Assembly (NCBI GenBank): GCA_024682375.1
Contig: JAIKZI010000007.1
Span: 6,815-70,814, forward strand
Direction of reading: 5' to 3'
Source of the DNA: Lachnospiraceae bacterium
GTDB taxonomy: Bacteria; Bacillota; Clostridia; Lachnospirales; Lachnospiraceae
DNA length: 64,000 nt
Below, piece by piece: positions 35,776 through 56,219 of this stretch. The notes below the pieces were generated by a model. It searched no databases. It saw only the letters and a list, made by a program, of their open reading frames with translations, and was not told the origin of the DNA. Position 1 is the stretch's first letter, and each line of letters opens with the position of its first letter. A program made the position numbers and the translations under genes.

Positions 35776-36903
35776 TTCCTCGAGAACGATACGGATAACT
35801 CCCTACTCCTAACTTGCTTTCGTCCGTAAATGTAAAAAACGCCCTCCTCGAATTCTAAAAAAAGAATTCTCGAAGGGTGTTTTTTACTTGGTACTGCGAG
35901 AAATTACGGATACCTCAGTTTCGATACACTTGTTTCGTCCGTAGGCAGATTATATTCCTCGAGAACGATACGGATGACTCCCTACTCCTAACTTGCTTTC
36001 GTCCGTAATTTTTTTAGCAAGTTGCCGCAGAATACAGATACCTAAGTGTATTTTCTTGTCCTTCGTCCGTAGCTGTCCTCGCCAGAGGCCTAAAAATACA
36101 GATACCTTTGCTAGTTAAATTTGCTTTCGTCCGTAAATGTAAAAAACTCCCTCCTCGAATTCTAAAAAAAAGAATTCTCGAAGGGCGTTTTTTACTTGGT
36201 ACTGCGAGAAATTACGGATACCTAGGGTTAGATACACTTGTTTCGTCCGTAGGCGGATTATATTCCTCGAGAACGATACGGATAACTACCTACTACTAAC
36301 TTGCTTTCGTCCGTAATTTTTTTAGCAAGTTGCCGCAGGATACAGATACCTAAGTGTATTTTCTTGTCCTTCGTCCGTAGATGTCCTCGCCAGAGGCCTA
36401 AAAATACGGATACCTTTGCTAGTTAAATGGGGTTTCATCCGCTTTCAACCCCCAAGCCACGGGTACCTGCACTTCTTTAATAAGATTTAACCTAATACAA
36501 AAACTCCCTCCTCGAATTCTAAAAAAAGAATTCTCGAAGGGTGTTTTTTACTTGGTGCTGCAAGAAATTACGGATACCTCGATGTCGGTACACTTGTTTC
36601 GTCTGTAGGCGGGTTATATTCCTCGAGAACGATACGGATGACTCCCTTCTTCTAACTTGCTTTCGTCCGTAAATTTTTTAGCAAGTTGCCGCAGGATACA
36701 GATACCTAAGTGTATTTTCTTGTCCTTCGTCCGTAGATGTCCTCGCCAGAGGCCTAAAAATACAGATACCTTTGCTAGTTAAATAAGGTTTCGTCCGTTT
36801 TCAACCCCAAGCCACGGGTACCTGCACTTATTTAATAGGATTTAACCTAATACAAAACCACCCTCCTCGAATTCTAAAAAGAATTCTCGAAGGGTGGTTT
36901 TAT
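35776..36903. repeat. Mosaic palindromic repeat array 1 (BIME/REP-like)
   Basis: 13 full 39-bp TAC(G/A)GAT...TTCGTCCGTA cassettes plus 2 degenerate ones, 64-bp period; 4 copies of a CCCTCCTCGAATTCT-An-GAATTCTCGAAGGG hairpin at about 35834, 36141, 36499 and 36853. Confidence 0.95.
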
Positions 36904-37355
36904 TACTTAAATATTTCCTCAGAGTCCAAAACAATTGTGAAAGGTCCGATGTTTGAAAAGGTTACTTTCATTTCTTCACCAAAGATGCCAGTTCCGACTT
37001 TGTAGCCTGCGTTTCTACAAGAGTCTACTACGTAGTTGTAGAGGTTTTCAGCGAGGTCGGGCTTGGCTGCGTTTACGAAGCTTGGACGATTGCCGTGAGA
37101 GCAATCAGCATAGAGAGTAAACTGTGATACTAAAAGAAGTTCTCCGCCGACCTGATTTAGATTTAAGTTTATCTTGTCATTCTCATCCGGAAAGATTCGA
37201 AGGCCGAGCATCTTCTTTACCATCTTGTCTGCTATCTCTTTTGTATCATCAGGTCCGATACCAACTAAAACCATATAACCTTTATCGATTGAACCTGTTA
37301 CTTTATTGTTTACTTCTACCTTTGCATCTTCTGCAATCTGAATTACAAACTTCAT
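36903..37355 (-). CDS. dtd: D-aminoacyl-tRNA deacylase
   Basis: SQFTLYADC..GNRPSF and GPFT motifs. Confidence 0.96.
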   Translation of the reverse strand: MKFVIQIAEDAKVEVNNKVTGSIDKGYMVLVGIGPDDTKEIADKMVKKMLGLRIFPDENDKINLNLNQVGGELLLVSQFTLYADCSHGNRPSFVNAAKPDLAENLYNYVVDSCRNAGYKVGTGIFGEEMKVTFSNIGPFTIVLDSEEIFK

Positions 37356-38965
37356 TTAAAACTCCTTGAGAAGGACTCTATCATTGTATCTACTGTCTCT
37401 GCTTCGTAAGGATTGATATCAATATCTGAAGCAATTGATGAACCTAAAATATGAATGATTGCATCCTTTACCTTAAAGATACGCTTGATTGGACTACTCT
37501 TTGCCTCGATAAACTGAACCTTATCAAAATCACAAATATAATATTTATAAGAAAATACGCCATCTTTGATCCACATTCTCTTATCATTCATATAAATCTT
37601 ACATGTGCGATTTCTCCAATACATCGCAAAGAGATCCCACAAAATATTACCAACATAAAAGATAAAATACAAAACTGCCAGCCAGAGCGGCATTCCTAAA
37701 AACTCATCCTTTACGTTTGTAAATGTTTTAAATATGAATACCATTACTCCAAGATAAAAGATATTCATAATAAGGTCACTTAAAAGACCATCTACAAAAT
37801 CAAATTTAACCATACGACTTGCACGGGAATGCATTTCTTTGTCATCTTTGATTTCATATTCTGGAAGAATCTTTTCTAGAACTTCTTTTAACTCATCAAA
37901 CTTTAGCGCTGGGAGAAGCCACTGACCATCGACATCATCATCCTCTCCACCTACATTGATTAAATTTACTGAAACTCGATTCATAAGTTTTCCGAAAAAA
38001 GTACTATTAAGTCTCACTGCCTGAGTATGCTTTAATGGAACTGAATACGATCTAACCTTCAGCGCTCCACTTCGAAGATAAATAATATTCCCTTTTCTCT
38101 TCACTCTAAAATCGTAATTCTTAAACCAGTTCTTTAAAAGACTCTTTACCATTGCATAGATGATACCAAGAGCAAAAATTCCAACAGTGACAAAAGCTTC
38201 CTGATTTGCACCTGTTTTAATCAGTTCAACAAAGATTACAACAGTTCCAATAATTGCAATAACCAAAGATACAACAGACATAAATTTCATGCCGCCTAGC
38301 GCGCACATAAAGCTCTCGCCTTCTGATACTTTAAAATCATAATCTCTGTCTAGATCAACATCAACACCATTGTCTGCTGCCTCAGGATTAATTATTACCT
38401 CTTCAGAACTATTAATTTGATCTATAGGCTTTTCTACTGCTGCCGCATGTTCAGGCTTAACCTTCTCACTTGTGATACACTCCATCACAATTGACTTAAG
38501 GGCAAAGGCATCCTTTTTTCCTAAAACAAAACATACATCAGTTCTATTTGCTGTAGAAAGAGTTGAAGTATCAAACTTTATCTTATAGATACCGACGATA
38601 CGCTCAAACACATTCTGCTCGAGGTTAACATTTGAAATACTTGAAGAAGAAAGCTCATTTCTTTGGGAAAAAAGTGTATTCTTCTCATATACAAGTATTC
38701 CATCTTTAAAAGAAATCGTAGTCCTAAGCCATCTAAAGAACACCACGAACGCACACACAATTATAATTCCAAATACAACTATAAAACCAATCATCGAGTC
38801 TTCACTGGTAAGTTCAGATAGTCCATTTCGTCTTACATCCTGAATGAATTCAATAAGTTCATTAGTCTGATTAAAAATAGCAATAAAAATTGCAAGAATA
38901 ATACCCCAGGCATTTTCTAATATAGATAGAAAGTGAGCTCTTCTTTTAGAAAATTCTCTTTCCAT
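37352..38965 (-). CDS. Bacterial PH-domain membrane protein (YdbT-like)
   Basis: Three TM-plus-bPH_2 repeats (e.g. ISNVNLEQNVFERIVGI, VQFIEAKSSPIKRIF). Confidence 0.8.
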   Translation of the reverse strand: MEREFSKRRAHFLSILENAWGIILAIFIAIFNQTNELIEFIQDVRRNGLSELTSEDSMIGFIVVFGIIIVCAFVVFFRWLRTTISFKDGILVYEKNTLFSQRNELSSSSISNVNLEQNVFERIVGIYKIKFDTSTLSTANRTDVCFVLGKKDAFALKSIVMECITSEKVKPEHAAAVEKPIDQINSSEEVIINPEAADNGVDVDLDRDYDFKVSEGESFMCALGGMKFMSVVSLVIAIIGTVVIFVELIKTGANQEAFVTVGIFALGIIYAMVKSLLKNWFKNYDFRVKRKGNIIYLRSGALKVRSYSVPLKHTQAVRLNSTFFGKLMNRVSVNLINVGGEDDDVDGQWLLPALKFDELKEVLEKILPEYEIKDDKEMHSRASRMVKFDFVDGLLSDLIMNIFYLGVMVFIFKTFTNVKDEFLGMPLWLAVLYFIFYVGNILWDLFAMYWRNRTCKIYMNDKRMWIKDGVFSYKYYICDFDKVQFIEAKSSPIKRIFKVKDAIIHILGSSIASDIDINPYEAETVDTMIESFSRSFK

Positions 38966-38968
38966 ATT

Positions 38969-54831: not shown

Positions 54832-55456
54832 TTTTTAACTCCTCCATATTCTTAACAATACAAATTGCCCCTGCTTCTTTCATGTCCTCTATATCACCGA
54901 ATCCCCATGTAACAGCAATACACGGAAGATCAAGTTTCTTCGCACCAACTACATCATAGATAGTATCTCCAACCATGACAATATCATCTTCTATCCCCTG
55001 CTTCTTAAGAAGATATTCAATAACATCATTCTTTTTCTCACGGCTTCCATCCAGGGTTGCACCTGCGATTTCATCGAAGTACTTTGCCATATCGAAGTGT
55101 TCTAAAACTTCCTTCGCAGTAATCTCAGGCTTCGATGTAGCAACATATAATCTGTAGCCTTCTTCTTTTAACTCTTTAAGTAAATCTATAATTCCAGGAT
55201 AAGGTCTATTTTCAAATTTACCCTTTACGTTGTATCTTTCTCTAAAGATATCTACTGCTTTTATCTCATCTTCTTTTGGAACACTATGCTTTATAAAACT
55301 ATCTCCCAAAGGAGGTCCAATAAATGTCTTCAAAACTTCTTCGTCTGGAGGAGTAATCCCCAGCTTCTTATATGCATAAAGAACACTTTTAATAATTCCA
55401 TCTGAAGAATCTGTAAGTGTTCCATCTAAATCAAATAATATATTTTTATATTTCAT
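54818..55456 (-). CDS. HAD family hydrolase (phosphoglycolate phosphatase / nucleotidase-like)
   Basis: FDLDGTLTDS, ATSK, MVGDTIYD. Confidence 0.92.
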   Translation of the reverse strand: MKYKNILFDLDGTLTDSSDGIIKSVLYAYKKLGITPPDEEVLKTFIGPPLGDSFIKHSVPKEDEIKAVDIFRERYNVKGKFENRPYPGIIDLLKELKEEGYRLYVATSKPEITAKEVLEHFDMAKYFDEIAGATLDGSREKKNDVIEYLLKKQGIEDDIVMVGDTIYDVVGAKKLDLPCIAVTWGFGDIEDMKEAGAICIVKNMEELKNAIH

Positions 55457-55474
55457 ATTACAATCCTAATTTCT

Positions 55475-56219
55475 CTAGTTCTATATCCGTCTTTGCTAAC
55501 TTGCTTCTCCACGGCAGACTCCAAAATAGGGCTTCACCGTGGAAAATTCTAGTCAGCTATCCGCCTTCGACAACTTGCTTCTCCACGGCAGACTACAAAA
55601 TAGGGCCTCACCGTGGAAAATTCTTGTTCTATATCCGCCTTCGACAACTTGCTTCTCCACGGCAGACTCCAAAAGAAGGCTTCACCGTGGAAAATTCTAG
55701 TCAGCTATCCGCCCTCGACAACTTGCTTCTCCACGGTAGACTCCAAAAAAGGGCTTCACCGTGGAAAATTCTAGTCGGCTATCCGCCTTCGACAACTTGC
55801 TTCTCCACGGCAGACTCCAAAATAGGGCTTCACCATGGAAAAATCTAGTTCTATATCCGCCTTCGCTAACTTGCTTCTCCACGGTAGACTCCAAAAGAAG
55901 GCTTCACCGTGGAAAATTCTAGTCGACTACCCGCCTTCGCTAACTTGCTTCTCCACGGTAGACTCCAAAAGAAGACCTCACCGTGGAAAAATCTAGTTCT
56001 ATATCCGCCTTCGACAACTTGCTTCTCCACGGCAGACTCCAAAAGAAGGCTTCACCGTGGAAAATCTAGTCGCCCATCCGCCTTCGACAACTTGCTTCTC
56101 CACGGCGAAAAGCAAAATAGGGCTTTACCATGGAAAAATCTAGTCGGCTACCCGCCTTTGCTAACTTGCTTCTCCACGGCAGACTCCAAAAGAAGGCCTT
56201 ACCATGGAAAAATCTAGTT
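55475..56219. repeat. Tandem palindromic repeat array 3: ten 74-bp units
   Basis: CTAGT starts at 55475, 55549, 55623, 55697, 55771, 55845, 55919, 55993, 56066, 56140 and 56214; each unit has AACTTGCTTC-TCCACGG...CC(G/A)TGGA. Confidence 0.96.

Follow-up and report, generated by a model that had tools for sequence, protein, structure and literature searches.

Tandem arrays with unit lengths near whole helical turns co-occur with a gene family for a nuclease-like protein in Lachnospiraceae

The 64,000-nucleotide stretch of Lachnospiraceae DNA analysed here (the window; positions 6815-70814 of contig C2 in the source assembly, which we call G000) carries three tandem repeat arrays and a relic array near 13.7 kb. 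We favour, with a probability of roughly 60%, the view that these arrays are dispersed, or ‘orphan’, copies of a repeat-plus-enzyme system of the Lachnospiraceae with a putative nuclease-like partner protein. The analyses establish that arrays and a gene family for a nuclease-like protein co-occur and adjoin one another, that paralogs of this gene have arrays with private ends, that the protein has a predicted nuclease-like fold, and that unit lengths nearly always fall on whole helical turns with frequent switches between period classes. Such a repeat-and-nuclease system is apparently undescribed so far, and a full-text literature search by sequence and by topic found no description of one. 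Below, Cn denotes contigs and Gnnn denotes other genomes of the family. The G000 assembly comprises 1.9 Mb in 85 contigs with a G+C content of about 38% and is about 94% complete, with contig breaks falling at repeats. Its proteins have annotated homologs in Butyrivibrio, Pseudobutyrivibrio and ‘Lachnospiraceae bacterium’.

The window arrays were checked with Tandem Repeats Finder (TRF) and by direct reading, and cassette starts were recomputed using the pattern TAYRGATRMC.

Array 1, 35776..36903, + strand: 13 cassettes of 39 bp (TACGGATACC-N20-TCGTCCGTA) with 25-bp linkers and a 64-bp step.
Array 2, 46067..47152, + strand: 12 cassettes (TACGGATACC-N20-TCATCCGTA) at steps of 64 and 115 bp.
Array 3, 55484..56218, + strand: ten 74-bp units, each consisting of AACTTGCTTCT and then a hairpin, CCACGG-N22-CCGTGG.
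Relic near 13.7 kb, 13600..13850, + strand: remains of an array of the AAACCTCG(G/T)...CGAGGTT type, spaced at 73-74 bp; a single AACTTGCT box lies at 13761.

An earlier note, made from the sequence alone, had described arrays 1 and 2 as sharing a 39-bp cassette, a 64-bp step and a 115-bp step (once 116), and had assigned 73-74 bp to array 3 and the relic. Our recomputation agrees on both points. The cassette of arrays 1 and 2 reads TACGGATACC-N20-TC(G/A)TCCGTA. Cassette starts in array 1 run from 35790 to 36761 at steps of 115, 64, 64, 64, 116, 64, 64, 64, 164, 64, 64 and 64 bp, and the 3' arms of array 2 run from 46169 to 47128 at steps of 64, 64, 115, 64, 64, 115, 115, 115, 64, 64 and 115 bp. 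In array 3, the AACTTGCT box recurs from 55498 to 56163 at eight steps of 74 bp and one of 73 bp, and the CCTCG/CGAGG half-sites of the relic lie 73-74 bp apart (13668 to 13742, 13713 to 13786, and 13741 to 13814). The sequence CTGC(G/A)AGAAATT(T)ACGGATACC, reported to follow the hairpin module in arrays 1 and 2, is indeed seen in both, and AACTTGCT does occur at all four loci; the window holds 20 + strand copies of this box, and 20/20 lie inside the loci, where about one would be expected by chance. Units are arranged directly rather than alternating, with 24/25 5' arms and 22/25 3' arms on the + strand, and the N20 ‘loops’ of the cassettes belong to a few recurring types.

Whole units (64-308 bp by TRF) are 84-95% identical and there are no unique spacers between them, which argues that the arrays are not clustered regularly interspaced short palindromic repeats (CRISPR). 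Periods of 53-75 bp and partly palindromic repeats do resemble CRISPR geometry, but the absence of unique spacers refutes a CRISPR-like or degenerate CRISPR origin, to which we give virtually no chance. True CRISPR arrays recovered in a metagenome scan look different from these arrays, and the partner protein described below is not a Cas family in PADLOC. The genes flanking the arrays are housekeeping genes by Pfam, although no genome-wide cas search was made.

Phylogenetic profiling, which the earlier note had proposed as a way to find a co-occurring protein, did find one: a nuclease-like protein whose gene is flanked by arrays. Homologs of this partner are present in 16/16 tested genomes that have AACTTGCT arrays with periods on the helical-turn lattice described below (G000, from which the query was taken, and 15 others), against a background of 77/301 genera, and they are absent from two genomes with off-lattice arrays (69 bp; 48/82 bp). 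Arrays found by motif alone directly adjoin the partner gene in G319 (two loci), G395 and G083, and in two samples of other genera a tandem array lies no more than 1.5 kb from the gene at most loci. The array is upstream of the partner gene in about 20/28 cases, with the purine-rich strand usually being the sense strand of the gene. Genome G006 lacks the partner gene and has no obvious palindrome-ended non-coding arrays; its 63-bp repeats, by inspection alone, resemble one CRISPR array and a set of coding repeats. Merely counting 40-130-bp repeats does not separate the gene-less G006 from G000 (18 versus 14 regions).

G000 encodes three paralogs of the partner, each about 270 amino acids long and sharing 35-43% mutual identity, all of which are located outside the window.

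Partner paralog, C9:6101-6907: bracketed by TACGGA/TACAGA cassettes (TACGGAT...ATCCGTA) of the family found in arrays 1 and 2.
Partner paralog, C67:4607-5443: followed immediately by an array of GGTTGT...ACAACC units.
Partner paralog, C24:29237-30070: adjoins CCTCGG/CACCGG repeats and AACTTGCTT boxes.

Each paralog examined in the sister species G009 has arrays with private inverted ends. The partner has roughly 700 homologs, among them annotated ones in Butyrivibrio proteoclasticus, B. hungatei and Pseudobutyrivibrio xylanivorans.

The partner protein has no match among Pfam, NCBIfam, PHROG or PDB sequences. A confident AlphaFold model built on 63 homologs (predicted local distance difference test score 91.7) shows long N-terminal helices with a beta-hairpin, and a C-terminal alpha/beta domain. 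Its top Foldseek matches are all of PD-(D/E)XK type (Bax1, DrdV, R2 endonuclease, cap-snatching endonucleases, MunI and Hjc). Over its C-terminal 120 amino acids, the partner is clearly homologous to the C-terminal part of PDC-S68, a candidate defence protein in PADLOC (E values of 1e-24 to 1e-27), and this domain also matches the HEAT_CxxC_PD-DEXK model of PADLOC weakly. Residues S162, K163, E165, E182, P195, D196, E207, E211 and H212 are invariant in the 63 homologs. We read the protein as an N-terminal coiled coil joined to a PD-(D/E)XK nuclease-like C-terminal domain. PDC-S68 resembles the partner in this C-terminal domain of about 120 amino acids, and proteins of about 1,100-1,280 amino acids with the domain occur in Lachnospiraceae, but PDC-S68 is a protein of about 1,200 amino acids compared with about 270 for the partner. 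Open reading frames of 1,112-1,279 amino acids that end in the nuclease-like domain were seen on G145:C13, G084:C1, G220:C1, G155:C6 and G276:C6, and these are probably PDC-S68-type candidate defence proteins.

The second line of evidence concerns the lengths of the repeat units. The earlier note had observed that the window periods lie near whole helical turns, had read this as spacing under selection, and had cautioned that the fit could be chance. The periods of 64, 74 and 115/116 bp do correspond to 6.1, 7.05 and 11.0 turns, and the 51-52-bp hairpin module corresponds to 4.9 turns. The period distribution modulo 10.5, the check proposed there, was evaluated using arrays next to the partner gene in other genera, which were selected blind to motif and period. 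For each array, TRF rows were kept if they reached 60% or more of the top score, held no fewer than 2.5 copies and had a period of 45-110 bp, and the rule then took the smallest period. The periods of 32/39 arrays fall within 0.15 turn of n x 10.5 bp (R = 0.64, p < 2e-5). Two rule-based sets, the second being a replicate drawn from independent loci, give R = 0.60 (p = 4e-4) and R = 0.70 (p = 8e-5), respectively. When lattice spacings of 7-16 bp are scanned, hand-picked primary arrays fit best at 10.3 bp (R = 0.70, p about 1e-4), and a second, independent set of loci, evaluated with the spacing fixed beforehand, gives R = 0.85. The signal is kept when the period range is widened to 25-130 bp (R = 0.55), and unrelated tandem repeats show no lattice (R = 0.16-0.20). 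A metagenome scan for AACTTGCT repeats, which returned mostly unrelated repeats and true CRISPR arrays, served as a control alone. The lattice periods seen are 53, 62-64, 73-75, 94 and 106 bp, equal to 5, 6, 7, 9 and 10 turns, and the mean offset is about zero at 10.5 bp, which indicates that the periods are plain multiples of the helical repeat. Given the 39 gene-adjacent arrays and the flat controls, the caveat about chance is not upheld, and selection on spacing is supported by periods on n x 10.5 bp in two sets together with the co-occurring gene.

Period classes are spread over the maximum-likelihood tree built from the partner proteins (11 changes, versus a shuffled mean of 12), and supported clades mix 53-bp arrays with 73/75-bp arrays, and 62-bp arrays with 68- and 83-bp arrays. 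This scatter suggests that periods change frequently and return to the lattice. Within units, the strongest average harmonic of the A/T-dinucleotide signal is near 10.5 bp (Fisher p = 0.002), and this harmonic exceeds its neighbours weakly (p = 0.045).

A search of 400 genera of Lachnospiraceae for AACTTGCT copies spaced 58-78 bp apart, extended afterwards to 79-108 bp, revealed arrays in many genera in which the stems are unrelated, the box YYAACTTGCTTT is identical, and a hairpin then follows. Their periods are 52-53, 62-64, 73-76 and 94 bp, and a reversed-pattern control across genera yielded almost nothing. The top 7-mer in gene-adjacent units that is not of low complexity, AAGCAAG, occurs at 8/36 loci (about 0.3 expected) and lies within the complement of AACTTGCT, and CTTGC/GCAAG is found at 16/36 of these loci. 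This enrichment suggests that AACTTGCT is the local version of a box that occurs across the family without being universal.

The fate of individual loci was followed at the racemase gene (racD) beside array 2. In G009, whose racemase is 82% identical, two different 74-bp arrays reside downstream of the gene, with GACTTGCTTGA and in the opposite orientation, and G006 has no array at this locus. The sequence therefore turns over fully, and the box and the period class persist. Such turnover, with unrelated arrays at the same locus in sister species and none in a third, is also what would be expected of ordinary intergenic minisatellites, which arise by slippage duplication and are homogenised by unequal exchange with no factor acting in trans, so that common periods would merely record shared ancestry. 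Other properties of the arrays suit this explanation as well. The unit sequences are species-specific: no exact cassette of arrays 1 or 2 was found in 60 relatives or in JGI metagenomes, where no other strain turned up either, GTDB species representatives gave chance single matches alone, and no array 3 units were found outside this species. The order of modules in arrays 1 and 2 is mosaic, with few linker types, and the arrays include copies of ordinary gene terminators. Array 1 has four terminator-like hairpin modules (apexes near 35852, 36159, 36516 and 36871); in array 2, the Asp/Glu racemase terminator forms the first hairpin (46067-46118), and the remaining modules have apexes near 46331, 46572, 46687, 46802 and 47045. 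All of these are A-tract/T-tract terminator hairpins of the ordinary kind, and the module apex ATTC-GAAAAAA-GAAT is also found in unrelated gene terminators of G000. The lattice also loses significance once arrays are collapsed to lineages. However, plain minisatellites leave unexplained why one gene family lies beside arrays in dozens of genera, why paralogs have private ends, why unrelated units have a box in common, and why repeated period switches land on multiples of 10.5 bp. We consider this explanation unlikely.

As a separate observation, many terminator-like hairpins of G000 share the apex ATTC-(G/T)A5-8-GAAT above stems that differ and are fully paired (e.g. C9:7078, C19:123295 and C40:7148, and in the window 35852, 36159, 36516, 36871, 46087 and 46572).

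An alternative at the RNA level is that transcribed arrays are cut into unit hairpin RNAs that regulate or neutralise the nuclease-like protein, following the logic of type III toxin-antitoxin systems such as ToxIN, or that act as pyrimidine-rich sponges. The arrays mostly lie immediately upstream of the gene and show a fixed strand bias, the units fold into hairpins whose stems differ between arrays with pairing kept, and the loops are rich in C and U, all of which would fit a functional RNA. Yet a 10.5-bp lattice is meaningless for RNA. Arrays are also seen a long way from every copy of the gene and on either side of genes, and the genes around them may be convergent, divergent or in tandem. 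G-to-A changes in the stems are uncompensated and favour neither strand consistently. A scan inside arrays 1 and 2 found no promoter-like sites, which argues that these are not tandem small-RNA genes. Searches with Rfam 15 at both gathering and permissive thresholds assigned the arrays to no family, finding only a tRNA elsewhere in the window; the sub-threshold matches are generic hairpin or terminator look-alikes. Finally, Foldseek and PADLOC point to a DNA-nuclease type of fold for the protein rather than a ToxN-like one. An RNA-level system is therefore improbable, and both it and plain minisatellites explain less than a repeat-plus-enzyme system does.

A third possibility is that the arrays are a host platform like that proposed for bacterial interspersed mosaic elements (BIMEs), binding gyrase or a nucleoid protein or insulating convergent genes, and that the nuclease-like gene merely hitch-hikes. 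Arrays of G000 do sit mostly between convergent genes. Array 1 is flanked by convergent arsR-family and dtd genes and array 2 by the racemase gene and mgtE; array 3 lies between the start of a HAD hydrolase gene and the end of metA, which are both minus-strand genes. The arrays incorporate terminator hairpins, and the lattice and the internal A/T periodicity near 10.5 bp would suit DNA wrapping. In other genera, however, divergent and tandem contexts are as frequent as convergent ones, a general factor would need no paralog-private ends, and a genome of the same genus that lacks the gene has no arrays, or no evident ones. We regard this platform as quite unlikely.

Returning to the repeat-plus-enzyme system, we propose that its unit is a short cassette bounded by inverted ends of 6-9 bp, in most cases next to a box rich in pyrimidines (YYAACTTGCTTT; AAAGCAAGTT on the opposite strand), and that units would be read as double-stranded DNA. 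Paralogs would each recognize private ends, such that the C9 paralog pairs with the TACGGAT/ATCCGTA cassette of arrays 1 and 2. Dimers of the partner could sit on the inverted ends, with successive dimers aligned along the same helical face. Indels that disrupt the phase would then be lost, and modules of about five turns, such as the 51-52-bp terminator hairpins, would be tolerated. The helical lattice argues for recognition of double-stranded DNA on one face; gene-array adjacency and private ends point to the partner as the reader, probably in the form of a coiled-coil dimer; and the conserved acidic residues in its sequence suggest that it may also cut. More speculatively, nuclease breaks in or beside arrays could be repaired by slippage or gene conversion in ways that grow, homogenise and spread the arrays. 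This spread would parallel that of repetitive extragenic palindromic (REP) sequences by REP-associated tyrosine transposases (RAYTs), with an unrelated enzyme. What we infer beyond the observations is how cutting leads to array growth and which role, selfish, defensive or structural, the system plays. The nuclease domain that the partner has in common with PDC-S68 points to a possible defence role. A bolder version, which we hold as tentative and somewhat doubtful, is that this coiled-coil PD-(D/E)XK family forms a phased, one-sided filament on arrays of whole-turn units (5-10 x 10.5 bp), perhaps for defence or for self-propagating genome structuring.

Several results weigh against this interpretation. 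When each period class contributes one value, the lattice fit is not significant (p = 0.26), and arrays with the same period may share ancestry, which would inflate the statistics. Some arrays fall off the lattice at 45-48, 57, 68 and 71 bp, as does the 164-bp step of array 1 (36405 to 36569; 15.6 turns), which the earlier note had left out, and an inverted pair of arrays elsewhere in G000 (C16, below) has a period of 45 bp, or 4.3 turns. The half-site spacings within the 74-bp unit (28 and 46 bp) are not whole turns. The AACTTGCT box is absent from most gene-adjacent arrays, and in the approximately 94% complete assembly no paralog turned up next to the CCACGG arrays (array 3 and its sister on C82). 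The Foldseek scores are weak (E values of 0.01-0.6 and template modelling scores of 0.2-0.27), which is explained by the fact that one domain alone aligns. Lastly, a PD-(D/E)XK nuclease cannot rejoin DNA, so transposition in the style of REPs and RAYTs is not directly transferable.

One of the closest parallels is with the REP/BIME and RAYT systems (REPtrons) of Proteobacteria, in which short extragenic palindromes are present in many copies and the enzyme gene is flanked by its own repeats (PMC2817692, PMC3337134). The arrays described here likewise consist of many-copy short extragenic palindromes, often regularly spaced and mosaic with linker motifs, in which a conserved short box lies beside a variable hairpin, and an enzyme gene is flanked by its own, paralog-private repeats, in this case with an unrelated nuclease-like protein. 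They differ in that the enzyme is PD-(D/E)XK-like, whereas RAYTs have the HUH Y1 fold, and in that the units lack a GTAG head and instead have the common box YYAACTTGCTTT. Units are also arranged head to tail in one orientation rather than alternating as in BIMEs, although mosaic linker types are present, and the periods are quantised in whole helical turns. A direct RAYT/Y1 link was rejected, as neither G000 (94% complete) nor G023 gave a PF01797 match, and Y1 transposases in relatives have no link with the presence of arrays.

Plasmid iterons and centromere arrays, such as the 43-bp sopC repeats of F and parC of R1, are tandem protein-binding repeats with helical-phase spacing that lie by the gene for their binder. 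The present arrays resemble them in tandem arrangement, helical-phase spacing, an inverted repeat in each unit and proximity to the gene of a putative partner. In contrast, each chromosome holds many arrays, spread over ordinary intergenic regions, the partner looks nuclease-like rather than of ParB or Rep type, and partition or replication genes are not nearby. Type III toxin-antitoxin loci (ToxIN, CptIN and TenpIN) carry a tandem array of units of about 36 nucleotides directly upstream of a nuclease gene, and this placement and fixed orientation are seen here too. The units here, however, are 53-106 bp long, arrays also lie scattered at sites distant from the gene, the predicted fold is that of a DNA nuclease, and the lattice points to DNA rather than RNA. 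Minisatellites or variable number tandem repeats, such as mycobacterial interspersed repetitive units (MIRU), and the BOX elements of Streptococcus pneumoniae are likewise modular tandem repeats, non-coding and specific to a species, whose copy number probably varies, but they are not known to have a cognate gene, family-wide box or period lattice.

Other candidates were considered and rejected. TwoAYGGAY or CsrA-sponge RNAs came to mind because ACGGAU fits AYGGAY, but there is no model match, and TACAGA variants lack GGA. None of integron attC sites, an IS91/phiX-type nick site (CAACTTG), DnaA boxes, Spo0A boxes or the sigma-54 -12 element fits the whole unit or is conserved across arrays.

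Additional arrays related to those of the window are present in G000, as are solo units.

TACGGA cassettes as in arrays 1 and 2, C9:5040-5925 and C63:72980-74500: 64/115-bp steps.
Sister of array 3, C82:31812-32834: 13.8 copies of a 74-bp unit.
Relic-related arrays, C24:7805-8374 and C54:2593-3518: AAACCTCGG-type units at steps of 74, 41, 115 and 188 bp.

All six G000 arrays on C2, C9, C63 and C82 carry AACTTGCTTT on the C-rich strand, with negative GC skew. This replication-strand bias was not upheld in relatives (roughly 9 versus 5) and may be due to chance or be species-specific. At C16:17241-17630, two inverted 45-bp arrays without the AACTTGCT box flank a central hairpin between convergent genes, and these may belong to a different repeat family. 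An 87-bp repeat of 2.1 copies with the hairpin CCTCACCGAGG...CACGAGGTGAG is located between tRNA genes at a contig start (C51:169-354). In other genomes, repeats with a 33-bp period, whose units start with AACTTGCTTTTTCGTG and continue with variable sequence, were seen on G142:C45, G391:C31, G108:C214 and G119:C2.

Two long hairpins abut window arrays.

Long near-perfect inverted repeat of about 143 bp, 47166..47308, no strand assigned: abuts array 2 and lies outside the periodic array.
Long hairpin GCGCCGAGC...GCTCGGCGC, 56230..56312, no strand assigned: abuts array 3.

The first has outer arms TTTATCCATCCTGCTTG/CAAGCAGGATGGATAAA and inner 25-bp arms TCTACAAATGCAGGTTTGTCAAGAA, and against Rfam it gives spurious miRNA-precursor matches alone, as expected of a long hairpin. 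A look-alike of the second, GCGCCGATCAGCGG...CCGGCTCGGCGC, is found beside arrays of G009 (L299, about 6580-6660), and together they may represent a second conserved hairpin family of the genus. Array 3 contains a minus-strand promoter-like sequence, TTGTCG-16-TAGAAT, in three of its units (window positions 55546-55795), upstream of the HAD hydrolase gene. A promoter scan of this region found 6 sites versus 1.3 expected, and array 3 might supply or modulate the promoter of that gene.

In practical terms, these arrays break assemblies, with many located at contig ends, and they can be mistaken for CRISPR arrays; they could also serve as strain markers. If our interpretation is correct, about a quarter of the genera of Lachnospiraceae, which rank among the most abundant families in the gut and rumen, would carry an undescribed repeat-and-enzyme system that is a functional counterpart of REPs and RAYTs built on a different enzyme. 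The system would obey a physical rule whereby unit lengths come only in whole helical turns, and this rule would bear on the long-standing question of what keeps bacterial intergenic repeats regular.

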